From: Candidatus Tenderia sp.
GTDB lineage: Bacteria > Pseudomonadota > Gammaproteobacteria > Tenderiales > Tenderiaceae
Assembly (NCBI GenBank): GCA_031416075.1
Contig: JANOSY010000088.1
Span: 9,504-73,503 of the forward strand
DNA: 64,000 nt
Reading direction: 5' to 3'
In this document: one piece after another, positions 32,777 to 52,661 of the stretch
Numbering within the stretch: the first letter of the stretch is position 1
Layout of the letters: each line of letters begins with the position of its first letter
Made by a program: the position numbers and the translations under genes
The notes under the pieces: generated by a model
The model's database searches: none
What the model was told of the DNA's origin: nothing
Seen by the model: the letters and a program-made list of their open reading frames with translations, nothing else

Positions 32777-35700
32777 ATGTCCTGCACTGTTGTAAGGGCA
32801 ATCACAGCTCTCTGTCCCGGCCCACTGGCCGGGCAGCGGGCCCCCTTACACCTTTATATAACAACCCTTCTTGGATTCCTGGTACTGCTCTGGTCAACCA
32901 CGACCCTGGCCGTCCCCCCTGGCACCATCATCAGCAACGTTGCCAGCATCAATTACACCATTGGCGGCCTACCCGGTCTGCCACTCAGCTCCAACATCGA
33001 TCAATTTACCGTGGTCGCCGCCGCCAATACGGTGGATGGCACCATGAGTGTGGCCGCGCCAGGCGGTAATCTATATGCCGGTTCGCCCCGCGCCACCACC
33101 ATCACCCTTAACAATACCGGCACCACCCTGCTGAACAATCAACAACTTACCATTACCGCACCGCTTAACAGCCAAGTAACACTGACCGGCAGTGGGGTCA
33201 CGCTGGCCGCTTCCATGAGCAGCAGCACTACCACCACCTACATTTTTAACGTGGCAGATCTACCGGTTGCTGGCAGTCAGGACCTCCAGCTGGTACTGAC
33301 CGCAGCCCCCACCGCTGTCAGCCGCCCCCAGACATTCACCGTTGCACACAGTGTTGATGGCACAACACTCCAGCAGCAATCCCTGACACTGAGCGCCTTG
33401 CCACGCACGGCGGCCAGACTGGAGATTCTGCAACACTCCCTCAGTAACAGGGCACTCTCGGCCATCGTCAATTCCACGCTGATCCGGGGGGAGAGCGGTA
33501 CCTTTACCCCCATTGCGCCGCCGACACTGCCGGAGGCACCAGACCGGCTAGTGACCGACAGCCCCATCACACTGGAGCCTGCCAACGTATTCAGTAATAT
33601 CCAGACGCTTTTTATCCGGGTCACCGATCTGGATCAAAATCTCGACAGTACGGTTCAGGAGAGTCTCGACATCACCATCAAGCTGCCCGATCGAGACGAC
33701 TATGTCACGCTGCGAATCCTCGAAACCGGCATCGCAACCGGCATCTTCAGCGGTTACGTCACCTTTGAAAAAAACAGCGCCACCAGCAGTGGCGCGCTAC
33801 CGGTCAAAAGCAATTCCAAGCTGCTGGTCAGCTATACCGATACGATCGATGGTGACGACAGTGTCGCCGAGACCGTGCTGATCGACCCCTACGGCGTGGT
33901 ATTTGACAGCGCCACCGGCCAGCCACTGGATGGTTACACCGTACAGATGGTCAACACCGATACCGGCCTGCCCGCCACGGTCTATGGCGATGACGGTGTC
34001 AGCAGCTACCCCGCCACCGTGATCACCGGCAGCCCGGTGACCGACAGCAGTGGCAACCTCTACAGCTACAATACCGGCGAGTACCGTTTTCCACTGGCCC
34101 CAGCGGGTAATTACAGACTGGTCGTCACCTCACCCAGCAGTGCCCAGTATCGCTGGCCCTCAACCCAGTCAACCGAACAACTCCATAACCTCTCCCGCAG
34201 CAACCTTGCCATCACCCTCGGCTCGCGGGGTGAGCGCTTCCCGCTGCTGCCAGGACCACCGCTGCATATTGATATTCCTGTGGATCCGCTCACCACCCAG
34301 CTCTACCTCCAGCGCAGTGCCAACCGCGAGAGTGTCGCGACGGGTGACCTGATCCGCTACAGCGTCCAGGTTGAGAACAGCACCGCCACCACCCTCAACG
34401 ATGTGGTGCTGACCGAGTCCCTGCCCCACGGTTTCCGCCTGGAGCCAGGCTCCATCAACATGGACAACAACCCGCAACAACCCGCCACCATTGAGCCACA
34501 AGGTACAACCTTCACCCTGAATCTCGGTGCCATGATCGCCGGTGAGCGCCGCCAGATCCGCTACGTCAGCGCCGTGGGTGCAGCACGCCAAGGACTGGCC
34601 AGCAGCAGTAGCCACGCCCGCGCCAACAGCGGTGCCGCCAACTCCAACCACGCCAGACACGATGCCATGGTGTTTGATGAGTTGATGCGTGGCCGCGCCC
34701 TGCTGCTCGGGCAGGTCATTATCAACCCCACCGACAACGACCCCACCCCCGCCAGCGGCTTAAAAGGGGTGCGTATCTATATGGAAGATGGCCGTTACGC
34801 CATCAGCGATGAACGGGGCATGTTCCATTTTGACAACCTCACCCCCGGCAACCATCTAGTACAGCTCGATACCGCCACCCTGCCAGACCACTATTCGCTG
34901 GTGATGGGCGACCAGGACACACGCAACGCCCACAGCCCCAGCTCGCAATTTATCGACCTGCAGGGCGGCACACTCTGGCGTACAGAGTTCCACGTTGCCC
35001 GCAAGCCCACCCCCACGGGGGCGCTATCACTGCAACTCAGCAACACCGCACCCGACAGCCAAGGCAACATCCCCTATCAGGTAACGCTGGAGAACCGGGG
35101 TGTCAGCGCCAGCAACCTGCGGTTAACACTCATGATCCCCGCCACCACCCACTACCAGCCCGGCAGCAGCCACGTTGGCGGCCACCCCGTTGGCGATCCT
35201 GATATTGTCGGCAACGTGCTCATTTATCGCCTGAACAACGACCACCCAAGCGGTGGCTGGCAACGTCAGCTCCACCTCACCCTGCAGGGCGACACTGGCA
35301 ATAGTGCCAGTGGTGACAGCCGCGAATTGACCACCAAGGCGTCACTCCAGTTTGATACCCCCGCCCAGCAGAACCAGCGCCTGCCACTGCTGCAACATAC
35401 CTTTACACTCACCACGGAACAGGTCAAACAGGGGGAACAGAAGGTCCTGGCCGAAAGCCTCACCCTCGACAACTTCAACGGCAGCAGCAATGACCTCAGC
35501 GAGGAGCATAAAACAGTCGTGCAACAGCTGGCAGAACGCTGGGCCGGCCAGGATATCCACATCCACGCCATCGGCCACAGCGACAGCCGGGACATTATTC
35601 AGAAGGAGAAGGAGGACCAGCGCCTGTTTGCCAACAACCAGATCCTCTCTGAATATCGCGCCCATGAGGTCGCTAACCAGCTCCGCCAGCAGCTCTCCCT

Positions 35701-38700
35701 GCCAGCCAACCGCATCTCCTTTGAAAGCAAAGGGGAGGACGAACCTGTCGCCAGTAATGCCACATCGGCGGGTCGAGCGACCAACCGCCGGGTAGAGCTT
35801 CATATATATAGCGTGATCAGCACCACAACCCCACATATCCACGGTACTGCCACCACCAGTGAGCGTCTGAGCAGTACCATCACCGGCCTTACACCCGGTG
35901 AACAGCCAATAACCACCGCGACCGTTACCACAACCACGGAGTACAACAGCCAGTGGCTCGCCAGCCAGACCGCCAGTATTGAGTGGCTGCTGCCCCAGGA
36001 GCGACCCGCGCTCCCCACCACCAACATCGCCATCAAACACCACAGCGACCAGAACGTCACCCTCACCCTCAATGGCCAGCCCGTGGCCGCCATGAACTTC
36101 AACGGCACCCTCAACAACAGCCATGGTGCTGCCGTCAGCCACTGGGCCGGGGTTGATCTGAACGAGGGCGACAACCTCTTTCATGCCACCATCAGCAATG
36201 CCCAAGGTGAGTTTATTCAACAACTTAACCGCAACCTGCACTACTCCAGCGCCCCCGTGCGGGCAGAGATTGTGCCAACGCTCTCCACCCTCATTGCCGA
36301 TAGCATCACCCCGCCGGTCATCGCCGTACGCCTGTATGACAAAGACAGCCACCCCATCCACGCCGGCATGGAGATTGAGTACCAAATCAGCCCACCGCAC
36401 CAGCCCGCCCAAGAGAGTTTTAATACCGACAACATGGTTGCCGCCCCTGGCAGACGCCACTACGCCACCTCCGACAATGATGGTCTCATCCTGATCAAAC
36501 TCGCCGCCACCAACAGCACCGATGATCTACGTCTGCAGCTGCCCCTGGCCCACAACCGGACCGTAGAGTTAAAGAGCCGTCTCCAGGCCAAGGCCCGCGA
36601 CTGGATACTGGTGGGGCTTGCCGAAGGGGAGGCCGGTTTTAACAGCCTGAGTGGCAATATGGAGGCGCTCGACGGCAACGCCGCCCAGGATCATCTCTAC
36701 CAGGACCAACGTATCGCCTTCTTTGCCAAAGGCCAGGTGCTGGGTAAATGGCTGCTGACCCTGGCCTACGACTCCGATAAAGCACAACCACAAAAACAGG
36801 GGAACGATCCAGCGCTGTTCCAGGCCATCGACCCCGGCAGCTACTACACCGTCTATGGTGATGCCGGTCAAAACGGTTTTGATGCCGCCAGCAGCAAAAA
36901 GCTCTACCTCAAGCTGGAGCGCAACGCCTTCTACCTGCTCTTTGGCGACTACCAGACCCAGCTCAGCGAGACCCGTCTGGCCCGCTACGACCGCACCCTG
37001 ACCGGCATAAAGTCCCGTTATCAGAATGAACAATACAACCTCATGCTCTTTATCAGCGAAAACAGCCAATCCTTTGCCAAGGATGAGCTGCGCGGCCAGG
37101 GCAGCACCGGCCCCTACCCGCTGTCACGCAGCAACGTCGCCCTCAACAGCGAAAAGGTAGTGCTGGAGGTGCGCGACCGTTTCCGCAGCGAACAGATTGT
37201 CAGCAGCACACTGCTGGCGCGCCACAGCGACTACGACATCAACTATCTGGAGGGCAACATCACCTTCCGCGAGCCGGTATTCAGCACCGATGCCAACCTC
37301 AATCCGCAATACATCGTCATCAAATATGAGTCCTACACCGGCGACAGCCAGACCACCATCGGTGGCCGGGCCGAGGTGAAGGTCAACGACCAGCTCAAGA
37401 TCGGCGTTACCCAAGTGAGTGAAGGGCGCGCTACAGGTGATGCCCTGCTCGGGGCCGCCGATCTGCAATACAAGTTCAACGATGCCACCACCCTGCGCCT
37501 TGAGACGGCCCGCAGCCTGATTGCCGACGAAGGCAGCGGCAACGCCTATCTTGCCGAAGTTGAACACCAGACCGTCAACAGCAGTAGCAAACTCTATCTG
37601 CTGGATAACGACACCCATTTTGGTCTGGGACAAACCAACGCCAGCGAAAATGGCATGTACAAACAAGGGGTTGAGACACAGCTGCGAGCCAGCGACAATA
37701 TCAACATCAAAGGCCAGCTCTACCGCCAGGAGAGCAGCCTCAGCCACGCCAGCCGTGACCTGGCCGAGGCACAGGGCGAGATCAGCCGCGGCACTACCCG
37801 GCTGCGCGCCGGCCTGCGTGAGGTGCAGGATCAGCGCGGCGACAACAGCCAGCAGCAGTCGGAACAGCTCACCACCGGCATCAGTCAACAGCTGCTGGAC
37901 AGTAAGGTGACCCTGCGGGCCGACCGCGAGATCAACCTCAACAATGGCAATGACAGCATCGACTTCCCCGACAAAACCCGGCTTGGGGCCGACTACCACA
38001 TCACCCAGAAGATCAGCCTGTTTGCCGAACAGGAGGTGGCCAACAGCGACCTCCGCGATACCCGCCAGCGCCGTCTTGGTATCAAATCAAACCCCTGGAA
38101 CGGCGCGGAGATTTACAGCGGCCTGAGCCACTCCAGCAGTGATAACGGCACTGCAACCAGCGCCAATGTCGCCGCCCGCCAGCGCTGGCAGCTCAACCCA
38201 CAGTGGAGCGTTGATGCCGGTATCGAGCAGTCCCAAACCCTAAGCCAGAATCTGAACCAGAACCAAAGCAGCGGCCCAACCCTCAGCCCACCTGCCGCCA
38301 CGCCGTTCAACCTCAACAGCGGATTTGCCATCGGCAGCAACGAAGATTTCAGCGCCGCCTCCTTGGGTGTCACCTATAGCGACAAAGGGTGGCTCTGGAG
38401 CAGCCGTGTCGAGTCGCGCACCGGTGATCTGAGTGACCGTCGCCGCCTTGCCACCTCAGTACAGACATCACCACACAACGACCTCTCCATGCTCGCCTCC
38501 CTCAACCTGCTCACCAGCAGCAGCGCCCAGGGTGAACAGCAGGATAGCTCAACGGTGCAGCTCGGGGCCGCCTACCGCCCCAGCAATAGCCGCTGGCTGC
38601 TGCTGGATAAACTGACCCTGAAAAAAGAGCGCCATAACAACAGCACCCTCGACAGCAGCGGCTGGCGCATCATCAACCTGTTCAATGCCAATTACCGAGA

Positions 38701-39073
38701 AGGGCGCTGGCAGACATCGCTGCAATACGGTGCCAAGAGTGTTAAAGAGACCATCGACGGCAACGAACATAACCAGTTTGTTGACCTCAGCGGCATCGAG
38801 AGCCGTTATGATCTAACGCCAGAGTGGGACATCGGCCTGCATGGCAACATCCTGCACGCCTGGCAGCTCAACCAATATAACTACAACAGTGGTGTCTCGG
38901 TAGGCCACACCGTGGCCAAAAACATCTGGCTGAGCCTTGGCTACAACTTCAACGGCTTCCGCGACAGCGACTTTTCGCGCAGCAGCTATACCAGTCAGGG
39001 GCTGTTCCTCCGTTTCCGGATGAAATTTGACCAAACCACCGTGAAAGAGGCGATCCAGTGGGCCAGCCAATGA
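32777..39073 (+). CDS. Giant (2098 aa) outer-membrane-associated protein: DUF11 repeats, internal OmpA-like domain, probable C-terminal beta-barrel
   Basis: One continuous ORF. DUF11-like segments include GDLIRYSVQVENSTATTLNDVVLTESLP and IPYQVTLENRGVSASNLRLTLMIP. There is an SdrD-B/CarboxypepD_reg-like segment, GVRIYMEDGRYAISDERGMFHFDNLTPGNH. The OmpA_C-like segment is IHAIGHSDSRD...NQILSEYRAHEVANQL...GRATNRRVELHIY. The last roughly 800 aa have alternating beta-strand character and end GLFLRFRMKF plus 16 aa. Confidence 0.75.
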   Translation: MSCTVVRAITALCPGPLAGQRAPLHLYITTLLGFLVLLWSTTTLAVPPGTIISNVASINYTIGGLPGLPLSSNIDQFTVVAAANTVDGTMSVAAPGGNLYAGSPRATTITLNNTGTTLLNNQQLTITAPLNSQVTLTGSGVTLAASMSSSTTTTYIFNVADLPVAGSQDLQLVLTAAPTAVSRPQTFTVAHSVDGTTLQQQSLTLSALPRTAARLEILQHSLSNRALSAIVNSTLIRGESGTFTPIAPPTLPEAPDRLVTDSPITLEPANVFSNIQTLFIRVTDLDQNLDSTVQESLDITIKLPDRDDYVTLRILETGIATGIFSGYVTFEKNSATSSGALPVKSNSKLLVSYTDTIDGDDSVAETVLIDPYGVVFDSATGQPLDGYTVQMVNTDTGLPATVYGDDGVSSYPATVITGSPVTDSSGNLYSYNTGEYRFPLAPAGNYRLVVTSPSSAQYRWPSTQSTEQLHNLSRSNLAITLGSRGERFPLLPGPPLHIDIPVDPLTTQLYLQRSANRESVATGDLIRYSVQVENSTATTLNDVVLTESLPHGFRLEPGSINMDNNPQQPATIEPQGTTFTLNLGAMIAGERRQIRYVSAVGAARQGLASSSSHARANSGAANSNHARHDAMVFDELMRGRALLLGQVIINPTDNDPTPASGLKGVRIYMEDGRYAISDERGMFHFDNLTPGNHLVQLDTATLPDHYSLVMGDQDTRNAHSPSSQFIDLQGGTLWRTEFHVARKPTPTGALSLQLSNTAPDSQGNIPYQVTLENRGVSASNLRLTLMIPATTHYQPGSSHVGGHPVGDPDIVGNVLIYRLNNDHPSGGWQRQLHLTLQGDTGNSASGDSRELTTKASLQFDTPAQQNQRLPLLQHTFTLTTEQVKQGEQKVLAESLTLDNFNGSSNDLSEEHKTVVQQLAERWAGQDIHIHAIGHSDSRDIIQKEKEDQRLFANNQILSEYRAHEVANQLRQQLSLPANRISFESKGEDEPVASNATSAGRATNRRVELHIYSVISTTTPHIHGTATTSERLSSTITGLTPGEQPITTATVTTTTEYNSQWLASQTASIEWLLPQERPALPTTNIAIKHHSDQNVTLTLNGQPVAAMNFNGTLNNSHGAAVSHWAGVDLNEGDNLFHATISNAQGEFIQQLNRNLHYSSAPVRAEIVPTLSTLIADSITPPVIAVRLYDKDSHPIHAGMEIEYQISPPHQPAQESFNTDNMVAAPGRRHYATSDNDGLILIKLAATNSTDDLRLQLPLAHNRTVELKSRLQAKARDWILVGLAEGEAGFNSLSGNMEALDGNAAQDHLYQDQRIAFFAKGQVLGKWLLTLAYDSDKAQPQKQGNDPALFQAIDPGSYYTVYGDAGQNGFDAASSKKLYLKLERNAFYLLFGDYQTQLSETRLARYDRTLTGIKSRYQNEQYNLMLFISENSQSFAKDELRGQGSTGPYPLSRSNVALNSEKVVLEVRDRFRSEQIVSSTLLARHSDYDINYLEGNITFREPVFSTDANLNPQYIVIKYESYTGDSQTTIGGRAEVKVNDQLKIGVTQVSEGRATGDALLGAADLQYKFNDATTLRLETARSLIADEGSGNAYLAEVEHQTVNSSSKLYLLDNDTHFGLGQTNASENGMYKQGVETQLRASDNINIKGQLYRQESSLSHASRDLAEAQGEISRGTTRLRAGLREVQDQRGDNSQQQSEQLTTGISQQLLDSKVTLRADREINLNNGNDSIDFPDKTRLGADYHITQKISLFAEQEVANSDLRDTRQRRLGIKSNPWNGAEIYSGLSHSSSDNGTATSANVAARQRWQLNPQWSVDAGIEQSQTLSQNLNQNQSSGPTLSPPAATPFNLNSGFAIGSNEDFSAASLGVTYSDKGWLWSSRVESRTGDLSDRRRLATSVQTSPHNDLSMLASLNLLTSSSAQGEQQDSSTVQLGAAYRPSNSRWLLLDKLTLKKERHNNSTLDSSGWRIINLFNANYREGRWQTSLQYGAKSVKETIDGNEHNQFVDLSGIESRYDLTPEWDIGLHGNILHAWQLNQYNYNSGVSVGHTVAKNIWLSLGYNFNGFRDSDFSRSSYTSQGLFLRFRMKFDQTTVKEAIQWASQ

Positions 39074-39092
39074 CAACCGCCACAACATCAAC

Positions 39093-42000
39093 ATGGACAG
39101 TACGATGAGATACGGACGTTTTATTCAGCTCTGCCTGCTGGCCACCCTGCTGCTGGTGGTACTTTTGCCTCGTCCAGGGGTAGCGGCCATCACCGCCACC
39201 ACCCTATTTGAAGGGTCAACGGATGGCGATGCCAGCGCTTATACTGGACCCTCACTCAGCCCGTCGGCCAACAACCTGATTCTCGTCTGGATAACCAATA
39301 CCCGCTCCTCCTCCCCCACCGTGCCCACCTTTACCGGTAACGGCCTCACCTGGGTGCAGGTCGCCACCGTCACCTGGGGCAGCAGCGGCTCCCCCACCGC
39401 ACGTACCACCCTGTTCCGGGCCATGGGATCCTCCCCCGCTACCGGGATCAACAGCATCGATTTTGCCGGCAATACCCAGACCGGCGTGGCGATGTCAATG
39501 ATCCAGTTCAACAACGTCGACATCACCGGCAGCAACGGTGCCAACGCCCTGGTTCAGAGTGTCACCGGCAGAACTGATAGCGCCTCCTCCACCGCCGGGC
39601 TGAGCCTCACCCTGGCAGCGCTGGGCAATGTTGCCAACGCCTCTGTGGGCGGCTTTTCCAACTTTATCAACTCCGCCACCTCCATCTCCCCAGGGTCCGG
39701 CTACACCGCCTCGTCCGGCACCACCTATCTGGCCCCCAGCATCAGCCTGCGCGCCGAGTGGAAGAGTGCGGGCAGCACCATCGTCAACGTCACACAGAGC
39801 GGTACCTCCCACATTGGCGGGATCGCCGTCGAACTCAAGGCCGACCTCTGTGCCGGCAATGTGGTCACCACCATCGCCAACAGTGGTGATGGCTCCCTGC
39901 GTGAATGTATCATCAAGGCCAACCTCAACCCCGGCACCACCATCACCTTCAACATTACCGCTGCGGCCAACCAATCTTCCGGTGCCAACTCATGGTGGCG
40001 TATCACCCCCACCACCGCGCTACCCACCATCACCGCTGCCAATACGGTGATTGATGCCACCACCCAGACCAGTAATCGTGGCAATACCAATACCCTCGGC
40101 CCGGAAGTTGAACTCAACGGTGCCACCGTCGGTGCCGGGGGGTGGGACGGTTTTGGTGTGGCTTCGCCAGCCACCGGAGTCATCATCCGCGGGTTCATCA
40201 TCAATCAGTGGTCAGGGTCAGGTATCTCACTCTGGAGCGGCAGCGGCACCATCAGGGGCAACTACATCGGTACCAACTACGCCGGTACCAGTGCCCTGGC
40301 CAATACCAGCTACGGCCTCTACCTCAATACCAATGGCAATACCGTCGGTGGCACCAGTGCTGCGGACCGTAACGTCATTGCCGGTAACGGCGGGCCTGGC
40401 ATCTACATTGTGAGCAACAGCAATACCGTGCAGGGCAACTACATCGGCGTCAACGCCAGTGCTGGGGCGATAGTTGCCAATAGTGGCCACGGCGTACAGA
40501 TACTCTCCGGTGCCACCGGCAATACCATTGGGGGCACAGCGGCGGGGGCAGGCAATGTGATTGCTGGCAACGGCGCTGATGGCATCAACCATAGTTCAAC
40601 AGGCAGCAATACCGTACAAGGCAACTACATCGGTACCAACGCCAGCAGCGCGACACTCTCTAATGGTGGCAATGGCATTGCCATCTCTGCCGGCACACTC
40701 AATGTGGGCAACGCCTCTGAATCCCAATCAAACATTATTGGCCCCAACAGTGGTGCGGGCATCAACCTGGCGGGCGGAACAGTGAATCTGGCAGGCAGTG
40801 TCACCGTGCGTGGCAACATGGCCCTGGCCAGCGGCACACTCGCCATGGGCAGCGCCACACTCAACCTCTCCGGTAACTGGAGCCGTACCAGCACCACCGT
40901 CACAACCGGCACCTCCACCGTGGTGCTCAACGGCACTGCCCTGCAGAGCCTGACCATGAACGGCAGTAACTTCAATAATCTGACCATCACCAACGGCAGT
41001 GTTGCAGGTATCAGTTTTAATGATGGTTTTAACGCCGCCAACATCACCAATACCACCCCCGCCTCCCGGCTGACCTTTAAGGCGGGCGCAACCTACACCC
41101 TCTCCGGCACCCTGACACTGGTCGGCAGCAGTGGCAACCAGATCATTCTGCTCAGCGACTCCCCCGGCACCCGCTTTACCCTGAACCCAACTGCTGGCGC
41201 GCAGAGTGTCAACTATGTCAACGTCAAGGATTCACAGGCCTCAACCAACAACATCACCGCCGATAACTCCACCAACAGTGGTGGCAATGATGATGCCGAG
41301 GCCGCACCACGCTGGGTCTTTAATGCCCCCGATACCACGCCGCCCGCCAGGATCATCGACCTGACGGTCACCTCCTCCACCACCTCATCCATCACCCTGA
41401 ACTGGACTTCACCGGGAGATGACAATAACAGTGGCACGGCTACCAGCTATGACCTGCGTTACTCCACCTCGCCCATCACGGCGGGCAACTGGGCCAGCGC
41501 CACACAGGCCGTTGGCGAACCAACACCCTTGGTGGCCGGTAGCAGCCAATCATTTAGCGTGACCGGCCTGGCCGCTGCCACCACCTACTACTTTGTAATG
41601 ACCACCAGCGATGAGGTCCCCAATACCTCCGCCCTATCTGACTCAGCGGTTGGCACCACCGGCGGCGGTGGTGGCGGCAATGTGAGCTACTACGCCAAAC
41701 GCAGTAACAGTGTCTCCATCGCCTCCGGCATCACCAGCAACAGCGGCTCCTGCGGCACAGATCCAACCGCCTACTACATTGAAGAGCTGTCAAAAAACAT
41801 CAGCGACATGTGTGTCACAGCAAATGCCTACCGCTGGGAGCAGTTGACGGCCGGCAGCTACTCGGACCACTACTTCAACACCGCCTATGTGGCCAATACC
41901 ACCGTTACCGGCGTCTCTTATCAGGTCACCATCCGCGACAGCGGAACAGTAGGTTTCCAGCTTTTTTATGTCACCTCCGGCGGTACCAAAACCTATCTTG

Positions 42001-44711
42001 GCACTGAAGTCACCCAGGTAAACAGTGGCATAGAAACCAATAACTACATCCTTAACCTCTCCGGCCAGTCTGGCACCATCCCCACCGGGGCAAAACTTGG
42101 GTTTCGTACCCGTGGTATCTCTGTCAGCCCCAGCTTCAGGATCTATGTGGGTAATCTGGATGGCAGGACACCCAGCAACCTCTCCGGTCATCTAATCGTC
42201 AACGAGGCCGTGGGCAGCAGCGATACCACCGCCCCGGCCAGTGTCACGCTCTCTACCGGTACCATCACCAACAACTCCGTGCTGCTGAACTGGGTATCAC
42301 CGGGGGATGATGGCAATACCGGCACCGCCCAGATCTACGACATCCGTTACTCCACCGCCGCCATCACGGCGGGCAACTGGGCCAGCGCCACCCAGGTAGG
42401 CGGGGAACCAACACCTCTGGTGGCGGGCACTGCCCAGACCTATACCGTGACCGGGCTGGCCCCCAATACCCTCTACTACTTTGCCATCAAAACCGGCGAC
42501 GAGACACCCAACTGGTCAGCGGTCTCCAACTCCCCCAGCGCCACCACCTACGATCCACCGGTGGGTGGCTTTAGTGTCGATAATGTGATCCCCGCCACCC
42601 AGATCAGCCAGTCCACCAACGGTTCAGGCATCATCACCATCAACTGGAAGGGGCGCGACAATCAGGCCAATAACGTCACACTCAAAACCTTTCAGTACAG
42701 CGTGGACGGTGGGGCTAGCTGGAACGCCCCCACCAACGGCGACGCCTCCGCCGCACTCTCCGCCACCTGGAGCAACAACGGCGGCAGTGGCTGGACCACC
42801 GCCACCACCTTGGCTGCCGCTCCTGTCAACAGCTTCACCTTCAATACCAAACATGCCAATGTCTCGGGGTTAAACGGGGTGGACCAGAACGATGTACGGG
42901 TCCGGTTTCTATTACGTGATGCCACTATGGATAGCCAGAGCTATGTCACCTCGACCGATTTTCGTATCGATGCCCTTGCCCCTACCGCGACCATTGGCAG
43001 CGCCATTTACGATGCTGCCAACGACCTGCTGACCATCACCGGCACCAACTTCACCACCATTGCGGCGGCCAGCACCGACATCAAAGCCTATGTCGACTGG
43101 AGCAAATTTGTCTGGGACATCAACGGCGACAACGCCACCACCACCGACATCAGCTTTGTGCTGGGTGACATCACCAGCCTGATCATCACCGACGATACCA
43201 CCATCACCCTGCAGTTCAGTGCCGCCAAAGGGATCGCCATCGAAGCCACCGCCGGCTACAGCACCACAGGCGGGGTCGACACCCTCGATGTTGCCGCCGG
43301 TTTTGCCCGAGACGACTACGGCAATGCCGCCACCACCGATGCGGTGGCCAACGGGCCACTCGTTACCACCTCGGTCTCAGGGATACTCTACGATACCGAC
43401 CGCACCACCAGCCTCGGTTTTGGCATGACGGTACGGCTACTCATCAACGGCGCCAGCATGGGCTCCACCACCACCGACGGCAGTGGTCGCTATACCTTCT
43501 GGAATAACGTCAGTGCCGGCAATGCCATTCTGGTCTACATCGACAATGGTGCCAGCACCGCCATCAGCGCCACCGTTACCGCCAACGCCAGCCTCTCGGA
43601 CTTTGATCTCTACGCCAGCCATCTGGTGGCCCGCCACGATAATGGGGGCGCACTCAGCAACGCCAACCTGGGAAGTGCCAAGGGGGCGTATGTCGACACC
43701 GATATTGTTTACTCCGTCACCGGCAGCGCGTTAACCGTCAGTGGCAGCGCCACCCGGCTACACATCCCGGCGGGCAAAAGTTTTACCCCGGAGGGCAACG
43801 TCACCACCCCGGCCATGAGTAATCTTGGCACCTTTGTCGGCGGCAGTGGTGCCATTACCATCAATGGCAACCTGAGTAACAGCGGCAGTTATACCGCCAG
43901 CAGCGCCACCACCACTGTTGCTGCTGACTTCAGCAACAGCGGTACCTTTACAGCCGCAGGCGGTACCGTGCTGCTTAACGGTATCAATCAAAACATCACG
44001 GGGACCACTACCTTCTTCAACCTGACCAAAACCGTGGCCACCGCCGACACCCTATTTTTCAGCGTCGGCTCCACCACCACCGTCACGGGTAGCGCCACCC
44101 TGCAGGGGGCATCGGGCCAGCCACTGAGTCTGCTCTCGATCACCCCCGGCAGCCGCTGGAACTTCAACATCGGCAGCAGCGCCACTAAGTCCTTCAGTTT
44201 TCTGAATGTGATCGACAGTGACGCCTCAGGCTCTGCCGCTGCCAAAAAACCGCTCATCGCCCAACCCAGCAACTCTACCGACAGCGGCAACAATGTGGAC
44301 TGGTTTGGCCTGCCCTCCATCTCGGTGATCAAATCCAGTACCCTGATATCCGACCCCGTTAACGGCACCACCAGCCCGCTGCATATCCCGGGGGCAATCC
44401 TTAACTATCAGATCCTCACCACCAACTCTGGCAACGGCTCACCCGATACCAATACCGTGGTGGTAACCGATGCACTGGACTCCAGCAAGCTTGAGTTTGA
44501 TGTCACCACCGGCATCACCTTTACCGCCAATACCTCGGGACTGACACTGGGCACAGTGAGTTATGCCCATACCGCCACCCCCACCACCTATACCTACACC
44601 CCCACCGGCCCCTACGACGCCAATGTGGCGGGCATCAAGATCACCACCAGCGGTACGTTTGCCAGCGCCGGTGCCAGCTTTACCCTCAACTTCCGCGTCC
44701 GCATAAAATAG
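39093..44711 (+). CDS. Giant (1872 aa) secreted beta-helix / FN3 / DUF11 surface protein (adhesin-like)
   Basis: Signal-like N-terminus RFIQLCLLATLLLVVLLPRPGVAA. It carries right-handed beta-helix repeats (NVIAGNGGPGIYIVSNSNTVQGNYIG, NVIAGNGADGINHSSTGSNTVQGNYIG), two FN3-like modules, and a C-terminal DUF11 domain (ISVIKSSTLISDPVNGTTSPLHIPGAILNYQILTTNSGNG). Confidence 0.75.
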   Translation: MDSTMRYGRFIQLCLLATLLLVVLLPRPGVAAITATTLFEGSTDGDASAYTGPSLSPSANNLILVWITNTRSSSPTVPTFTGNGLTWVQVATVTWGSSGSPTARTTLFRAMGSSPATGINSIDFAGNTQTGVAMSMIQFNNVDITGSNGANALVQSVTGRTDSASSTAGLSLTLAALGNVANASVGGFSNFINSATSISPGSGYTASSGTTYLAPSISLRAEWKSAGSTIVNVTQSGTSHIGGIAVELKADLCAGNVVTTIANSGDGSLRECIIKANLNPGTTITFNITAAANQSSGANSWWRITPTTALPTITAANTVIDATTQTSNRGNTNTLGPEVELNGATVGAGGWDGFGVASPATGVIIRGFIINQWSGSGISLWSGSGTIRGNYIGTNYAGTSALANTSYGLYLNTNGNTVGGTSAADRNVIAGNGGPGIYIVSNSNTVQGNYIGVNASAGAIVANSGHGVQILSGATGNTIGGTAAGAGNVIAGNGADGINHSSTGSNTVQGNYIGTNASSATLSNGGNGIAISAGTLNVGNASESQSNIIGPNSGAGINLAGGTVNLAGSVTVRGNMALASGTLAMGSATLNLSGNWSRTSTTVTTGTSTVVLNGTALQSLTMNGSNFNNLTITNGSVAGISFNDGFNAANITNTTPASRLTFKAGATYTLSGTLTLVGSSGNQIILLSDSPGTRFTLNPTAGAQSVNYVNVKDSQASTNNITADNSTNSGGNDDAEAAPRWVFNAPDTTPPARIIDLTVTSSTTSSITLNWTSPGDDNNSGTATSYDLRYSTSPITAGNWASATQAVGEPTPLVAGSSQSFSVTGLAAATTYYFVMTTSDEVPNTSALSDSAVGTTGGGGGGNVSYYAKRSNSVSIASGITSNSGSCGTDPTAYYIEELSKNISDMCVTANAYRWEQLTAGSYSDHYFNTAYVANTTVTGVSYQVTIRDSGTVGFQLFYVTSGGTKTYLGTEVTQVNSGIETNNYILNLSGQSGTIPTGAKLGFRTRGISVSPSFRIYVGNLDGRTPSNLSGHLIVNEAVGSSDTTAPASVTLSTGTITNNSVLLNWVSPGDDGNTGTAQIYDIRYSTAAITAGNWASATQVGGEPTPLVAGTAQTYTVTGLAPNTLYYFAIKTGDETPNWSAVSNSPSATTYDPPVGGFSVDNVIPATQISQSTNGSGIITINWKGRDNQANNVTLKTFQYSVDGGASWNAPTNGDASAALSATWSNNGGSGWTTATTLAAAPVNSFTFNTKHANVSGLNGVDQNDVRVRFLLRDATMDSQSYVTSTDFRIDALAPTATIGSAIYDAANDLLTITGTNFTTIAAASTDIKAYVDWSKFVWDINGDNATTTDISFVLGDITSLIITDDTTITLQFSAAKGIAIEATAGYSTTGGVDTLDVAAGFARDDYGNAATTDAVANGPLVTTSVSGILYDTDRTTSLGFGMTVRLLINGASMGSTTTDGSGRYTFWNNVSAGNAILVYIDNGASTAISATVTANASLSDFDLYASHLVARHDNGGALSNANLGSAKGAYVDTDIVYSVTGSALTVSGSATRLHIPAGKSFTPEGNVTTPAMSNLGTFVGGSGAITINGNLSNSGSYTASSATTTVAADFSNSGTFTAAGGTVLLNGINQNITGTTTFFNLTKTVATADTLFFSVGSTTTVTGSATLQGASGQPLSLLSITPGSRWNFNIGSSATKSFSFLNVIDSDASGSAAAKKPLIAQPSNSTDSGNNVDWFGLPSISVIKSSTLISDPVNGTTSPLHIPGAILNYQILTTNSGNGSPDTNTVVVTDALDSSKLEFDVTTGITFTANTSGLTLGTVSYAHTATPTTYTYTPTGPYDANVAGIKITTSGTFASAGASFTLNFRVRIK
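41331..41660 (+). repeat. FN3-like module, copy 1 (internal duplication within the 1872-aa gene)
   Basis: DTTPPARIIDLTVTSSTTSSITLNWTSPGDDNNSGTATSYDLRYSTSPITAGNWASATQ...TTYYFVMTTSDEVPN. It shares a near-identical nucleotide stretch (catcacggcgggcaactgggccagcgccac) with copy 2. Confidence 0.8.
42222..42548 (+). repeat. FN3-like module, copy 2
   Basis: DTTAPASVTLSTGTITNNSVLLNWVSPGDDGNTGTAQIYDIRYSTAAITAGNWASATQ...TLYYFAIKTGDETPN. Confidence 0.8.
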
Positions 44712-47445: not shown

Positions 47446-48004
47446 TCTGACAAACCCCCATCACCATAGTAACAATATCAACAACATGCCCTCCGCTTGT
47501 TACCGTTAATAGTTAATATAAAAACCACTTTAAAATATGGCTTTTATAATTAATGAGTATTTCAAACCACTACGACAAATAAAATAAATTTTATAAATCA
47601 TAAATACCGCAAAACAATTACCCATCACACCTGTGAAACCTCACTCAAATACCTTTATTTAACACCTGTTTTTTTCAATTAAAACAAGAACATTAATGCA
47701 CTTTTATTGTTTATTTATAACGCTAAAACAACATAAATAACCATATTAAAAAAGACTTTATTAATACCCATATATGAAAAAAATATCACTCAACACAAAC
47801 TCAATATGTTTAGCACAAAATAACTTAATGAAAATTTAAGTTTTACGGTGTAGGATAAATTTCACCCTCAGCGACATAACCAGTTATTTCTTGGAATGTT
47901 GCACTCTCGGGATCACGAGAAGAGCAGAGGGGGGAGTACTGATATTTGAATGGTTCAAATATTAGAGGACTATGATTTAAATCACATTTACTAAGGAGAT
48001 TATT

Positions 48005-48127
48005 ATGGGTGGCGGCGGCGGTATGGGCGGTGGCGGTATGGGCGGTGGCGGCGGCGGTGGTATGGGCGGCGGCGGCGGTGGCGGCATGGGCGGCGGTGGC
48101 GGCGGTGGCGGTGGCGGCGGTATGTAG
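48005..48127 (+). CDS. Micro-ORF 1: 40-aa Gly/Met-only peptide MGGGGGMGGGGMGGGGGGGMGGGGGGGMGGGGGGGGGGGM
   Basis: Hand-translated. AAGGAG at 47993-47998, a 6-nt spacer, ATG at 48005, TAG at 48125-48127. Followed by a structured 3' region and terminator. A paralogue lies at 48540. Absent from the ORF track, which shows only the antisense artefact 47843..48139. Confidence 0.6.
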   Translation: MGGGGGMGGGGMGGGGGGGMGGGGGGGMGGGGGGGGGGGM

Positions 48128-48208
48128 CTCCCGGCTCACTATGCACCCTCTCTCTCATGTGAGGGGCTCATAGCACAGTTGTAATGGCATATTGCCATGC
48201 GATGAAAT

Positions 48209-48236
48209 GGGGGGGCATTATGTCCCCCTATTTTTT
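48209..48236 (+). terminator. Rho-independent terminator of micro-ORF 1 unit
   Basis: GGGGGGGCA-tta-TGTCCCCC followed by TATTTTTT. Confidence 0.7.
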
Positions 48237-48539
48237 ATGCCAAAAAACAACACCTACCCCCTATCCTCGCCCTCCATATCCCGTGTGCTCAATAGCTTAA
48301 TTACACACAAAAAATAAATCATTTTTCCTGTGCGGAATATATTTTCTATTTCCCAACAAATTTAAGGGAAGGTTAACATACCCGATGTAGTATCGATAAC
48401 ACCTTAAACGTTGTGCCTGCTTTTTGGCTTAACGACTTCTCTGAAACTATGACGAGATAATAAGGCAGTACCGGTCTTTGAGTTATCAACGACCCAATAT
48501 AAATATCAATTACTTTTAAATAAAACTAAGGAGTTAATC

Positions 48540-48608
48540 ATGGGTGGAATGAACGGTGGTCGTGGTGGTATGGGTGGCGGCGGTGGCGGTGGTGGCGGCG
48601 GCATGTAA
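48540..48608 (+). CDS. Micro-ORF 2: 22-aa Gly/Met-rich peptide MGGMNGGRGGMGGGGGGGGGGM
   Basis: Hand-translated. AAGGAG at 48528-48533, a 6-nt spacer, ATG at 48540, TAA at 48606-48608. It has the same SD geometry, the same MGG start and the same GGM-stop end as micro-ORF 1. Confidence 0.6.
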   Translation: MGGMNGGRGGMGGGGGGGGGGM

Positions 48609-48687
48609 TATGCCCGCGTCACGCACTCCCTCTCACTATTGAGAGGCATGTTGCGTACCGCTATGGCTAACGCCATACAATAAAAAT

Positions 48688-48716
48688 GGGAGGGCATGTC
48701 TGCCTCCCATTTTTTT
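48688..48716 (+). terminator. Rho-independent terminator of micro-ORF 2 unit
   Basis: GGGAGGGCA-tgtc-TGCCTCCC followed by ATTTTTTT. Confidence 0.7.
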
Positions 48717-48800
48717 CGTCAATAATTCCCTGGCCTACGCCATTACTCGATACTCAAATAACCCACCGCCTTACCCTTCATCTCTCAAAAATTTCTTTTA

Positions 48801-50576
48801 TTATGCCTCGTTATCAGACTGCCACAGCACTGAAACCTTATATTCTGGATGGGATATATAGAGTTCATCATGTGTACCTACTGTAATTGAGCCATTGCCA
48901 TTAAAATAGAAGACTCTGTCGGCATTGCGAATAGACGAATAACGATGGGCGATAACAAAAGTCGTGCGACCTGTACGTAATGTATCCAGGGCAGCCACTA
49001 CCTCTTTCTCTGATTGGCTATCCAATGCTGAAGTTGCCTCATCCATAATTAAAAATGGAGCATCCATTAACATCGCCTGTGCAATTGCAATACGTTGATA
49101 CTGTCCACCTGATAGCTCAACACCGCCGGATCCTACGCGAGTATCAAGCCCATCACTCAACGCTGTAATAAATTGCCATGCGCCACTCACTTCACAGGCG
49201 TGTACCATCTGCGACTCAGTGGCATCCGGCTTCACTAATAGTAAGTTGGTGCGAATCGTATCGTGCATGATGAACGGGGTTTGCCAAATGATTGAGAATT
49301 GCTCACGTAATGAGGCGATAGTTACAGTGCGAATATCCACCCCATCAATTGTAATACGGCCTTGCTGAGGGTCATGAAAACGCATCAGCAGCCGGGCAAG
49401 TGTTGATTTTCCAGCACCGCTTGCTCCAACCAGGGCGACTGTTTCTCCGGCGCGCACTTCAAGATTGACACCTTGTAAGAGCAGCTCCCCTCCCGTGTAG
49501 GCAAAATCTACACTCTCAAAACGAATACCTCCCTCAGTCACAACTAATGGCTCTGCATCAACAATATCCTGGGTCTCAGGTTTTAGATCAAATATCGCCA
49601 AAACACGCTGCGCAGCCCCAAAATCACCTTGTAACTGCATTGGTGCTTGTGCAAACCCACGCACCGGCACCGAGAGATACCCCAAGTAGAGTAGGAAACT
49701 GACCATCGCCCCTATACCAAAACCGTGACTCTCTATCCGATCGATCCCGACGAACACTATCACGATCCCACAAAAATAGATCATGGCCGCCAGTGTGACC
49801 GTGAACCCTTGGTCCAACCAGCGCATCTTCATGCCCCAGTAACGTGCCTGTTCGTAACACTCACCATGCCTAGCCGCCATGCGTGTCTCGCCCCGGACTG
49901 AGCTTATGCCACGCAGATTGCTTAAGACCTGTTCTTCAAAGGCTAATAGTTTGCCCGCTTCATGAAAAAATCGTTGCGATGCCTTACGCTTGCGCGGGCC
50001 GAATAACCCCTGATGTATGACAAACAGTGGCACAAACATTAACGCCACCAGGGCCATATACCAATCGATCCAAAACAACATGCCACAATAAAAAAATAGG
50101 GTTAACAGGTGAGAAACAAGAAAGAAGGGGACTTCGAGTACCATGTTCTGCACACTGTCCACATCACTGCTAAGGCGGGCAAGCACGTCCCCCTTCTGTA
50201 GATGTGCAGCACCGGGCGCAGAGACATCAAACAGATGACGCAGGGCAGCTTGACGCAGCCGCCCCACAAAACGAAGCCCCAACCAGTTAGCCATCAGGGT
50301 GGAGGAGAAGTGAAATCCCTGGTTGATGACAACAACCAGTATCAACCAGAGCAGCACCGATTTAACCTGATCAAAACGCCCGGCCTGTAAGTGGTCAAAC
50401 GGTAACCCTATCAGCCAGACCATGGCGGTATTGGTCACGGTTAACCCTACAATAGTCCCTATGACCAAACTGACAAACACCACATCGGCACGTGCGTATG
50501 GCAAAAAATGGCGGAAGACTTGCCAGAATTGGGACCTTTGCACGACAGTTTCGCCCTGCTGAGGGGTATCACTCAT
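48801..50576 (-). CDS. ABC exporter, fused permease/ATPase (MsbA-type half transporter)
   Basis: 591 aa. The N-terminal half has six TM spans. Walker A GASGAGKST, signature LSGGQYQRIAIA, Walker B FLIMDEATSALD. There is no N-terminal C39 peptidase domain. The start overlaps the asnB-like stop (ATGA). Confidence 0.9.
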   Translation of the reverse strand: MSDTPQQGETVVQRSQFWQVFRHFLPYARADVVFVSLVIGTIVGLTVTNTAMVWLIGLPFDHLQAGRFDQVKSVLLWLILVVVINQGFHFSSTLMANWLGLRFVGRLRQAALRHLFDVSAPGAAHLQKGDVLARLSSDVDSVQNMVLEVPFFLVSHLLTLFFYCGMLFWIDWYMALVALMFVPLFVIHQGLFGPRKRKASQRFFHEAGKLLAFEEQVLSNLRGISSVRGETRMAARHGECYEQARYWGMKMRWLDQGFTVTLAAMIYFCGIVIVFVGIDRIESHGFGIGAMVSFLLYLGYLSVPVRGFAQAPMQLQGDFGAAQRVLAIFDLKPETQDIVDAEPLVVTEGGIRFESVDFAYTGGELLLQGVNLEVRAGETVALVGASGAGKSTLARLLMRFHDPQQGRITIDGVDIRTVTIASLREQFSIIWQTPFIMHDTIRTNLLLVKPDATESQMVHACEVSGAWQFITALSDGLDTRVGSGGVELSGGQYQRIAIAQAMLMDAPFLIMDEATSALDSQSEKEVVAALDTLRTGRTTFVIAHRYSSIRNADRVFYFNGNGSITVGTHDELYISHPEYKVSVLWQSDNEA

Positions 50577-52591
50577 ATGTGTGAATCAGTAAAACAGCGC
50601 GCCGTTTTGTTGATAAACAGGTCGTACAGAATCTGCACCGTCAGGATCGAAAACAGCACCCACTCCTGCCTCATTGCCCGGTAATAGGCATTGCCATCAG
50701 GGGGTGTGGGCAGGTTCACCAACTCATCCAACAGCGCAGTCACCACTTGAGGATTAAAGATGCCCGCCTGTTGAATCTTCTCTTCAGAGAGAAATTGCGA
50801 CAACCGGTCTGCATTTTTTGGCGTAAAAAACCATTCACGAATAGGGGTGTAAAAGGCACGTTTTTTATACGAAGTGGGATGTTCTGGTAACTTTGGCAAC
50901 ATTAACTTACGCAAAATATACTTCTCATCCAGGCCATTCAGCTTGAGTGCTGGTGGCACCTTTGCCGCTAACTCCACCAGTTTGTGATCCAGAAATGGGA
51001 CCCGCGCCTCCACACCGTTAGCCATGGCCAGTCGATCTGCCCGCCACAATATCCAACCTGGCAGACGGGTCTTTATCTCCAGATACAGGGACTGGTTGAG
51101 TGGATGCAACCCTTCCAGCCTGGGCTTTAAGGTGGTGATCAACTCTGCCATCTGCTGATCGTGGTCGGCGGACTGCTCCAGAAAATCATCGCTGAAGATC
51201 CCTTCACTCCCTTCACGAAGGATTTGCCAGAAGTCATACCAGACGGGATAACAACCAAATTGCGCCACCACCTTCTGCTGCTGCTGCGACTCATGTAAAC
51301 GAGCCAGCATCTGCAGATAATCAGGGGCAAAATCATTGCCAAAATCATCTAAATAGTAACGCAGCCGCTCCTCCTGCCCCCCCTTCTCATTACCCCACTG
51401 ACGGATGTAATCCTGGCGGAAGCAGTCATACCCCCCCAATATTTCATCTGCACCTTCACCGGTATACACCACTTTAAACTGATTTTTACGCACCAGCTCC
51501 GACAACATCAGCAGCGGGATATCCAGCGCCATACGTTGTGGCTGCTCGACGCTGTACATCGCCTCCACCAACACATCCAGATAATCATCACTGCGCTGGT
51601 CATCCATATACAGGTCATGCAGCTCAACACCGATGTGGTCGGCAATACTGCTAGTAATTGGATACTCGTCATTAGCACTATTGGAAAAGCGGATAGTAAA
51701 TGCCTTTACACTCTGCTCCGCAGACTGCTGCAACCAATAGGTGGTAGTGGCCGAGTCAACACCGCCGGAAAGATAGGAGCCAATAGGTACCTCGCCAATC
51801 ATGTGTGAGCGCACAGCGTCCTGCAAAACACCATCAAACTCTGCCAACCACTGCTCTTCACTGCGATCCTCATACTCACCCTCTCGGGGAAACTCCAGAT
51901 CCCAATAACAGTCAATTTGCGGCTGCTTACCTGCCACCAGTGTCATGGTATGGCCGGGGGCCAACTCAACCACCCCGGCAAAGAGCGTATGTGGCGCAAT
52001 ATTAAATTGATAGGAGAAAAAATTCCGTACCGATTGGGGATTAAAGGCGGGAGTGATCTGCCCCGATGCAAACAGCGATTTCACTTCTGAGGCACCATAC
52101 AGGGTCGTGCCGTCCCAATGGTAAACCAGCGGTTTGATACCCAACCGGTCCCTGGCCACAAATAGTTCGTTAGTTAATGAGTCATGAATAGCAAACGCAA
52201 ACATTCCCCGCAGGCGCGGCACACACTGCGCGCCATCGCGCTGGAACAGATGGAGAATCACCTCCGTATCCGATTGCGTCTGAAACAGAACGCCCTCCTG
52301 CTCCAGTTCAGCCCGCAACACCTTGTAATTATAGATTTCACCGTTATAAACAATGGCATAACGATCATCAATGCTTAACATCGGCTGGGCACCGCCACGA
52401 ATATCAACGATACTCAAACGGGTATGGCCTAACGCCACACCACCACGCACCAAATGGTTCTGTGCATCGGGTCCCCGATGTATCAGCGCATGCACCATGC
52501 GCCCTATTATTAATTCACTCGACTCACTCTGCGCCAACGGCTCAGCGGATTGATGATGGCCAGCACGATAGATGAAACAGATCCCACACAT
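50573..52591 (-). CDS. Asparagine synthetase B-like glutamine-dependent amidotransferase
   Basis: MCGICFIY carries the N-terminal nucleophile Cys2 when the start is the second Met at 52591. GHTRLSIVD, and the PP-loop SYLSGGVDS. About 672 aa. Confidence 0.88.
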   Translation of the reverse strand: MCGICFIYRAGHHQSAEPLAQSESSELIIGRMVHALIHRGPDAQNHLVRGGVALGHTRLSIVDIRGGAQPMLSIDDRYAIVYNGEIYNYKVLRAELEQEGVLFQTQSDTEVILHLFQRDGAQCVPRLRGMFAFAIHDSLTNELFVARDRLGIKPLVYHWDGTTLYGASEVKSLFASGQITPAFNPQSVRNFFSYQFNIAPHTLFAGVVELAPGHTMTLVAGKQPQIDCYWDLEFPREGEYEDRSEEQWLAEFDGVLQDAVRSHMIGEVPIGSYLSGGVDSATTTYWLQQSAEQSVKAFTIRFSNSANDEYPITSSIADHIGVELHDLYMDDQRSDDYLDVLVEAMYSVEQPQRMALDIPLLMLSELVRKNQFKVVYTGEGADEILGGYDCFRQDYIRQWGNEKGGQEERLRYYLDDFGNDFAPDYLQMLARLHESQQQQKVVAQFGCYPVWYDFWQILREGSEGIFSDDFLEQSADHDQQMAELITTLKPRLEGLHPLNQSLYLEIKTRLPGWILWRADRLAMANGVEARVPFLDHKLVELAAKVPPALKLNGLDEKYILRKLMLPKLPEHPTSYKKRAFYTPIREWFFTPKNADRLSQFLSEEKIQQAGIFNPQVVTALLDELVNLPTPPDGNAYYRAMRQEWVLFSILTVQILYDLFINKTARCFTDSHI

Positions 52592-52661
52592 CACAGACTC
52601 TCACGTAAACAATCCCTGCACACAACGCCGGTCAGCAACAACCGGAACCCGCCTGATACCA

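Follow-up and report, generated by a model that had tools for sequence, protein, structure and literature searches.

Structured elements that stabilize bacterial mRNAs at their 3' ends include the repetitive extragenic palindromic (REP) stem-loops of Escherichia coli operons, the 'positive retroregulator' of Bacillus thuringiensis cry, and the terminator hairpin of rpsO, which forms a barrier to polynucleotide phosphorylase (PNPase) and RNase II. Small RNAs (sRNAs) may have a dual function, as do SgrS/SgrT, RNAIII/delta-haemolysin, SR1/SR1P, and AzuCR, or may be derived from 3' untranslated regions (3' UTRs), as are CpxQ, DapZ, and MicL. A further group is formed by the mRNAs of type I toxins, including hok, tisB, ibs, ldr, and aapA1. 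Catalogues of bacterial mRNA elements cover structured 3' UTRs far less well than 5' leaders. In this work, a 64,000-nucleotide stretch of a Candidatus Tenderia sp. contig was analyzed (GenBank assembly GCA_031416075.1, contig JANOSY010000088.1, positions 9,504 to 73,503; hereinafter referred to as the window), in which two micro-open reading frames (micro-ORFs) for glycine/methionine-rich peptides are each followed by a module of RNA hairpins. The module is an undescribed 3' RNA motif of a known general kind, namely a structured 3' UTR with a terminator.

The two micro-ORFs lie in tandem on the plus strand, each behind a strong Shine-Dalgarno sequence (AAGGAG): micro-ORF 1 (48005-48127; stop codon TAG) encodes 40 amino acids, MGGGGGMGGGGMGGGGGGGMGGGGGGGMGGGGGGGGGGGM, and micro-ORF 2 (48540-48608; stop codon TAA) encodes 22 amino acids, MGGMNGGRGGMGGGGGGGGGGM. 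Behind each stop codon, three elements were found in the same order: H1, a long hairpin of irregular shape; H2, a short hairpin of the form AUGGC-loop-GCCAU; and an intrinsic terminator. The module occupies 48128-48236 in unit 1 and 48609-48716 in unit 2; the span 48128-48716 also takes in the promoter, 5' UTR, and ORF of unit 2. This shared three-hairpin architecture had been pointed out in an initial annotation made from the sequence, and every element of it was recovered in place by RNAfold and a terminator scan. RNAfold yielded the same three hairpins in both modules, with energies of -44.8 (unit 1) and -45.3 kcal/mol (unit 2). Compared with dinucleotide shuffles, z-scores were -4.1 and -6.5, respectively, and none of 200 shuffles was as stable.

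H1 of unit 1 (48139-48173, plus strand, as for all elements of the two modules) consists of an outer stem, CTATG/CATAG, and an inner stem, CCCTC/GAGGG, and H1 of unit 2 (48616-48661) has three layers, GCG/CGC, CACGCA/TGCG(T), and CCTCTCA-CTAT-TGAGAGG (48629-48646). In unit 1, H2 (48178-48203) has the core ATGGCA-TAT-TGCCAT at 48184-48198 above a lower stem (GTTGT/GCGAT) rich in G-U pairs; H2 of unit 2 (48662-48677) reads TATGGC-TAAC-GCCATA. The terminator of unit 1 (48204-48236) has a G/C stem flanked by an A-tract and a T-tract, with the T-run at 48231-48236, and that of unit 2 (48682-48716) has symmetric A-run and T-run flanks. Both were detected by the terminator scan and have the sequence features of intrinsic terminators, that is, a G/C-rich stem-loop followed by a U-tract, 3' of the stop codon. 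The RNAfold structures show hardly any single-stranded RNA from the stop codon to the terminator, the interval being filled by H1 and H2. No terminator-like signal was found from the stop codon to the module, which is in accordance with the expectation that the transcripts do not end before it.

Units 1 and 2 could be aligned over their full length, from promoter to terminator, with 75% column identity, and by this alignment they are paralogues. Two copies alone are insufficient as proof of selection, and homologous units were collected by two independent routes. In one, contigs were fetched via proteins 56-85% identical to the ATP-binding cassette (ABC) exporter encoded in the window; in the other, Joint Genome Institute (JGI) metagenomes were searched with the DNA pattern AGGAG-N6-8-ATGGGTGGAATGRRNGG, which comprises the Shine-Dalgarno sequence and the first codons. 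In total, more than 20 distinct homologous units were found in metagenome-assembled genome (MAG) and metagenome contigs of related Gammaproteobacteria (related loci are numbered L001 and so on), and the order of hairpins, H2, and terminator after the stop codon was common to them. Wherever a contig fetched via the ABC exporter had sufficient flanking DNA, one or two Gly/Met micro-ORFs were located convergently just past the ABC gene, an arrangement that held even where the rest of the neighborhood differed and an AsnB-like gene was absent. The DNA pattern gave approximately 15 further stand-alone micro-ORFs, most of which, on long enough contigs, adjoin an ABC homologue, a response regulator, or both. 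It also matched many C-terminal Gly-Gly-Met (GGM) tails of larger proteins, which are presumed to be chaperonins from the tail sequence.

A covariance model (R1) was built from a MAFFT alignment of seven close units. Within the window, R1 matched only 48606-48720 (108 bits) and 48136-48238 (54 bits). Since these two copies in 64 kb both directly follow micro-ORFs, the module is not a dispersed repeat, whether of the REP type or resembling a miniature inverted-repeat transposable element (MITE). R1 also found the A-type units of relatives, and its significant sense-strand matches in 25 related loci were located only after micro-ORFs.

In the MAFFT-only alignment of the seven close units, for which RNAalifold gave a consensus of 32 pairs, 96.4% of cells were paired, compared with 44-60% in a slid control in which the 3' partners were shifted by 1-3 columns. 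Nine pairs were changed on both sides, and the observed covariation score was reached in none of 500 shuffles. For 10 R1-aligned units, 92.8% of cells were paired (44-58% in the slid control), with ten doubly changed pairs. Across 20 units aligned with MAFFT only, H2 and the terminator were paired in 84.8% of cells (43-57% in the slid control), with eleven doubly changed pairs, and the terminator helix was 91% paired with six covarying pairs (20 homologues). The sequences were few and related, the model itself guided one of the alignments, and shuffle counts should not be read as probabilities; despite this, the slid controls and the MAFFT-only alignments agreed in direction. In the close clade, G-U pairs (17) exceeded A-C mismatches (5), as would be expected for folding of the sense RNA. 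The initial annotation had proposed that compensatory changes between the two window copies reflect structural selection and that a covariance-model search should reveal relatives, failing which the proposal would fall. Relatives were found, and the stems covary in the wider family beyond the two paralogues, so that selection on the RNA structure of the 3' module is supported by the alignments. The structures are real, exclusive to the Gly/Met micro-genes, conserved, and covarying, and the last of them has all the features of a terminator.

Individual helices illustrate these changes. H2 is the most conserved part: its consensus is (U)AUG(U)GGC-loop-GCCAUA, the lower stem being, for example, CAUC/GAUG or UCUA/UAGA, and the sequence of H2 is kept across ABC identities from 55% to 97%. 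The pairing AUGGC/GCCAU of most units is replaced by GUGGC/GCCAC in L003, and H2 of L013, misaligned by MAFFT and read directly, is UGUGCA/UGCAUA, with two compensatory swaps. Most units have CUCUCA/UGAGAG at the top of H1, as against CUCUUAA/UUAAGAG in L001, L008, and L095. The three-hairpin layout of the initial annotation was found in the close group, in which the ABC proteins are at least 74% identical (window, L001, L003, L008, L094, L095, and L096). In the distant group, with full-length ABC matches of 55-72% (L005, L010, L011, L013, L024, L039, L052, L057, L090, L091, and L097), H1 is replaced by hairpins of unrelated sequence, usually two, followed by the same H2 and terminator. The first hairpin replacing H1 in the distant clade also covaries, with CG in five and UA in four units at one position and GC in four and AU in three at another.

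In many units the stop codon lies in the loop of an additional stem of 4-8 bp, formed by the last codons and the first bases of the 3' UTR (H0). In unit 2 of the window, H0 (48600-48614, plus strand) reads GGCATG-TAA-TATGCC, with the stop codon as its loop; it is absent from unit 1. The stems reach 6-8 bp in close B-type units and in the L010/L024 group, and the arms differ by clade (GGCAUG/UAUGCC, GCGGCCG/CGGUUGC, and CGGUC/GACCG). Across the family, H0 is only modestly over chance (mean 4.8 bp compared with 3.1 bp in shuffles), while it is strong in the sub-clade of unit 2. Two further coding possibilities within the module were rejected: an ORF starting at the AUG of H2 (38 codons in unit 1 and six in unit 2), which has no Shine-Dalgarno sequence, and an ORF of 8-10 codons starting at an AUG 2 nt past the stop codon in B-type units, whose amino acids are not conserved.

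The micro-ORFs behave as coding sequence, as judged from third-position bias and glycine codon usage. Differences between equal-length orthologues at codon positions 3, 1, and 2 numbered 67, 30, and 21, respectively. Of 673 glycine codons in the micro-ORFs of the window and all loci, 625 were GGC or GGU (GGC 322, GGU 303, GGA 47, and GGG 1); GGG is nearly never used, so that an ORF of approximately 80% glycine avoids long runs of G. The micro-peptides consist of 84-100% Gly and Met. Poly-Pro ORFs on the reverse strand were ruled out, as the Shine-Dalgarno sequence, start codon, and third-position bias all fit the plus strand. In L003, a micro-ORF (7955-8080, minus strand) has a Pro/Ala-rich N-terminal extension, MPVVIAPPIIPAPPAPAP, followed by GGMGMGGMGMGGMGGMGGGGMGM, and retains the same Shine-Dalgarno sequence, 3' module, and terminator. 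No match to the 40-amino-acid peptide was found with phmmer among 1.84 billion representative proteins, a result that is uninformative for such a low-complexity query, and an exact look-up of the peptide returned no record. No family in Pfam or NCBIfam was found for the five micro-peptides searched. Full-text literature searches returned papers on GroEL tails and unrelated systems, and nothing on free-standing GGM micro-ORFs.

The promoter regions of the two units were also alike. A PmrA box is formed by two hexamers, CTTAAG/xTTAAT, 5 bp apart (PMC3973317), and takes the place of the -35 element according to a passage of PMC10570014. Unit 1 carries CTTAAT-GAAAA-TTTAAG (47824-47840, plus strand), 10 nt before a -10-like TAGGAT (47851-47856), and unit 2 carries TTTAAG-GGAAG-GTTAAC (48361-48377, plus strand), 10 nt before a -10-like TAGTAT (48388-48393); both boxes have the two hexamers, the 5-bp spacing, and the position upstream of a -10 element that characterize PmrA/QseB-type promoters. 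Every one of the 21 units examined had the direct repeat NTTAAK-N5-NTTAAK at a distance of 142-202 nt before the ATG. Further, a QseB/PmrA-like response regulator gene adjoins the micro-ORF in at least 12 related loci; the encoded protein is closest to QseB/PmrA while scoring under the NCBIfam cut-offs (251 against 345 bits). No such gene was found beside the units in the window. Each micro-ORF is most likely its own transcription unit activated by a two-component system, to judge from these motifs. From the box and the -10 element, leaders of approximately 140-170 nt and transcripts of approximately 375 nt (unit 1) and 320 nt (unit 2) are predicted, and the 250-300 nt expected initially is probably too small.

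The predicted 5' UTRs (47863-48004 and 48400-48539) each look highly structured individually. Their C/U-rich 5' end (CACCCUC) pairs with a downstream GAGGGG run, internal hairpins are present, and a long hairpin whose sequence differs by unit precedes the Shine-Dalgarno sequence (e.g., CTGATATTTGAA-TGG-TTCAAATATTAG at approximately 47938-47964). The 5' UTR also carries a CUCUGA/UCAGAG hairpin resembling the top of H1. No RNAalifold consensus emerged when nine 5' UTRs were aligned with MAFFT, and the leaders had no Rfam match. When the whole window was searched with Rfam 15 at gathering thresholds, only tRNAs were found, and a permissive scan of 47450-48850 gave only chance-level matches (E ≥ 0.16, with bit scores far under gathering). 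The tRNA genes of the window are located at 8234-8400 (two, at approximately 8.3 kb), 15069-15730 (five, minus strand), and 61541-61614 (a single one).

The gene convergent with the micro-ORFs encodes an MsbA-like ABC exporter (48801-50576, minus strand) with fused permease and ATPase and without a peptidase domain; from its recurrence among the related loci, it is the conserved partner of the Gly/Met micro-ORFs. It is overlapped by a gene in the same orientation for an AsnB-like glutamine amidotransferase (50573-52594, minus strand), and both stand at the end of a nusA-infB-rbfA-truB-rpsO-pnp block. The PNPase has a 100% identical counterpart on an 86-kb NCBI contig, and its nearest named relative, from Candidatus Tenderia electrophaga, shares 83% identity, which places the source among uncultured Gammaproteobacteria. 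The terminator of unit 2 is separated from the stop codon of the convergent ABC gene by 85 nt. Downstream of unit 1 lies the promoter of unit 2, and downstream of unit 2 the end of the ABC gene, so that no target in cis is available downstream of the 3' module. The AsnB-like gene accompanies the ABC gene only where the peptides end in ...GGGM (window, L001, L003, L008, L094, and L095), and loci whose peptides end in RGR, RR, or GR are without it; C-terminal amidation in place of a basic C-terminus is only an idea. In some relatives, a protein of approximately 300 amino acids is encoded beside the same ABC exporter (L005, 4882-5787; L096, 45-995; L003, 12919-13782; all on the minus strand). The N-terminus of this protein resembles a signal peptide, most clearly in L096, and the sequence contains conserved Cys pairs as well as three stretches rich in Gly and Met, one of which is the C-terminal GGGGMGGGGMGGMGGM tail. 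This suggests that its GGM stretches may act outside the cytoplasm. Pfam lists no family for the protein, and the window encodes no homologue. Upstream of the micro-ORFs, on the same strand, are xseA and genes for an M23 peptidase and a Dabb-domain lipoprotein. Further upstream of xseA, two very large ORFs (2098 and 1872 amino acids; 32777-44711, plus strand) were found, whose counterpart in L001 gave faint or weak fn3 and NDNF matches and a Pur_ac_phosph_N match.

We tentatively favor, at somewhat less than an even chance, the reading that the module is a cis-acting 3' UTR that ends and protects the short mRNA of the Gly/Met peptide, with hairpins shielding the 3' end in the manner of known 3' stabilizers. 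Under this reading, a two-component system would induce an mRNA of approximately 320-375 nt encoding a Gly/Met-repeat peptide, from a promoter with a PmrA/QseB-type box in place of the -35 region, and this mRNA would carry a 5' leader of approximately 140-170 nt. The last hairpin and its U-tract would act as the intrinsic terminator of the micro-ORF transcript and, given the flanking A/T-tracts, could work in both directions. In unit 1, the terminator would prevent read-through into unit 2, and in unit 2, it would prevent mutual read-through with the convergent ABC-exporter gene. We infer bidirectional termination from sequence features, and the terminator of unit 2 is probably bidirectional because of its symmetric A/T flanks and its location before the convergent ABC gene; the terminator part of R1 matched the reverse strand weakly (13.7-15.8 bits; E = 0.27 at 13.7 bits). 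The stacked H1 and H2, together with H0 in unit 2, may shield the 3' end from RNase E entry and 3'-to-5' exonucleases and thereby set the half-life of the mRNA and the yield of peptide after induction. Such shielding would be useful because 22-40 codons are too short for protection by ribosomes. The stabilizing role of H1 and H2 is drawn from the behavior of comparable stem-loops. That the 3' region controls stability or translation, one of the functions put forward initially, appears the most plausible.

Several points weigh against this explanation. The homologues are related and few, so that shuffle counts overstate significance, and the Gly/Met micro-ORF sub-families L021, L037, L051, L080, and L089 have different 3' UTRs without H2. 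The protective role would be assigned by analogy, and plain protection needs no set sequence, yet the sequence of H2 is conserved, which hints at a specific partner. Moreover, minimum free energy (MFE) folds of whole transcripts favor pairing of the G-rich ORF with the 3' UTR, with H2 opened. This last observation leads to a different proposal, which we consider unlikely, namely a switch linked to translation or stability. Here the 3' UTR would serve as an 'anti-ORF' strand, folding the mRNA back on itself as an extended, imperfect hairpin whose tip (H0) holds the stop codon. The partners of the repeated GGU-AUG-GGC and GGUGGC motifs of the ORF would be the 3' arm of H2 (GCCAUAC), the bases just after the stop codon, and the stretch joining H1 to H2, while the 5' arm of H2 (UAUGGC), mimicking the ORF motif, would compete for the same partner, and translation would open the closed form. 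In MFE folds of seven whole transcripts, six had 32-55 pairs between ORF and 3' UTR and an open H2, whereas unit 1 of the window had only six such pairs and an intact H2. The energy of the ORF:3'-UTR duplex was under that of the shuffled 3' UTR in 21 of 22 units and, in the close clade, much lower than that of ORF:5'-UTR pairing. However, the duplex z-scores were mostly only -1 to -2, with energies only slightly better than those of shuffles, because the G-rich ORF pairs with almost any RNA containing C and U. H0 places the stop codon in a hairpin loop with arms that differ among clades, but its mean of 4.8 bp stands against 3.1 bp in shuffles, and it is lacking in window unit 1. A switch would account for the conservation of H2 in sequence as well as in structure. 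On the other hand, covariation backs the local hairpins, including the outer stem of H1 (UA to CG at column pair 14-54), which compete with ORF pairing, and beyond H0 no ORF-UTR compensatory change could be scored because the ORF is repetitive. A more general proposal, that the transcripts are a new RNA class under two-component control in which H2 and H0 form a dedicated riboregulatory element, either an ORF-repeat switch or a docking site for some further factor, that gates translation or decay of the mRNA for the exporter-bound peptide, seems improbable to us; if true, the locus would represent a previously undescribed system of peptide export and RNA control, going beyond a protected mRNA end.

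The conservation of H2 could also be explained by a dedicated RNA-binding protein that recognizes H2, whose loop usually contains YAC, and perhaps the CUCU/AGAG top of H1; candidates would be a ProQ/FinO-like binder of 3' ends or a factor for translational control or for positioning the mRNA close to the exporter. The sequence of H2 is kept across the ABC-linked family, with exceptions that keep the helix (GUGGC/GCCAC in L003 and GCA/UGC in L013), and a similar CUCUGA/UCAGAG hairpin occurs in the 5' UTR. Nevertheless, no candidate RNA-binding gene was conserved in the neighborhood of the related loci examined, the motif is without any Rfam match, and the idea is purely inferential, so that we regard it as quite doubtful. 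Only slightly less doubtful is a role in trans, in which a dual-function transcript or a released 3'-UTR-derived sRNA would pair with mRNAs or titrate a protein. A short ORF in a structured RNA of 300-400 nt with a terminator and a stress-type two-component promoter does resemble known sRNAs, an A-rich linker precedes the terminator, and there was a weak, non-significant Rfam match to DapZ (18.5 bits against a gathering score of 56; E = 2.9). However, the RNA belongs to no Rfam family, and the A-tract is predicted to pair with the U-tail, which would be unfavorable to Hfq binding. Promoter-like sites within the unit did not exceed chance (two against 5.4 expected), and duplexes with the start of the asnB-like/ABC operon, the sole candidate target tested, were not above chance in six loci (z of -1.1 to +0.9). 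The dual function of peptide and trans-acting RNA suggested in the initial annotation thus gained no positive evidence: the stems are conserved while loops and linkers vary, leaving no conserved single-stranded seed, and no above-chance complementarity to the asnB-like gene was found. Finally, H1 and H2 might be mere inherited passengers of a terminator, alike because the two units are recent tandem duplicates. The window units are indeed paralogues with 75% column identity, but the hairpins persist with compensatory changes where the ABC proteins are only 55-85% identical, and structure is kept even where the sequence of H1 has been replaced. This reading is contradicted by covariation and is very improbable.

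Compared with described systems, the module shares with intrinsic bidirectional terminators the G/C-rich hairpin with a U-tract and an upstream complementary A-tract and, in unit 2, a location between convergent genes. It differs in having two extra conserved, covarying hairpins that are dispensable for termination, and unit 1 has the same layout without a convergent gene. As in the 3'-end stabilizers, stable stem-loops at or near the 3' end of the message would stop 3'-to-5' exonucleases and leave RNase E little room; in contrast to those elements, the module is specific to a gene family, present as a single copy per gene, built of distinct hairpins in fixed order, and conserved in sequence at H2. 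With dual-function and 3'-UTR-derived sRNAs, it has in common a short ORF embedded in structured RNA a few hundred nucleotides long, stress-regulated transcription, and a structured module near the terminator, whereas a conserved single-stranded seed, detectable target complementarity, an internal promoter, and an Rfam match are lacking. Type I toxin mRNAs likewise have tiny ORFs, heavily folded UTRs, and sometimes tandem copies. Their product is a hydrophobic helix, in contrast to the Gly/Met-rich peptide found here, for which an exporter and a response regulator are the conserved partners. Moreover, no promoter-like site for an antitoxin RNA was found on the minus strand between 47400 and 48900, and conserved pairing between the 5' and 3' ends was absent from the whole-transcript folds (20 pairs in window unit 1, and 0-4 in each of the remaining six).

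The micro-peptides are essentially a free-standing version of the Gly-Gly-Met repeat known from the (GGM)n tail at the C-terminus of GroEL (on such tails, see PMC11978752 and PMC12571646). Unlike the GroEL tail, they are encoded by stand-alone ORFs of 21-63 amino acids with their own Shine-Dalgarno sequence, promoter, UTRs, and exporter. The promoters share with those of the PmrA/QseB regulon a tandem hexamer box with a 5-bp spacer, located just upstream of the -10 element at the place of the -35 element (PMC3973317; a passage of PMC10570014), although the regulator of the relatives falls under the NCBIfam cut-offs and none is encoded beside the window units. No description of the peptide system was found in Pfam, NCBIfam, Rfam, or the full-text literature, and the genes for the Gly/Met micro-peptide, the exporter resembling MsbA, and the regulator resembling QseB/PmrA, joined in some loci by an AsnB-like gene, appear to form an undescribed cluster. 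Within it, the 3' module, which is attached to stand-alone (Gly)n-Met peptides, has been maintained through compensatory changes in a clade of uncultured Gammaproteobacteria. The clear genetic context of the module makes it testable, comprising a PmrA-type box, a dedicated ABC exporter, often a response regulator, and an amidotransferase in one sub-clade. Should H2 have a specific partner, the module would represent a new regulatory RNA element, and if the hairpins set the lifetime of the mRNA, it would offer a clean natural case of 3'-end engineering in a message whose shortness precludes protection by ribosomes.

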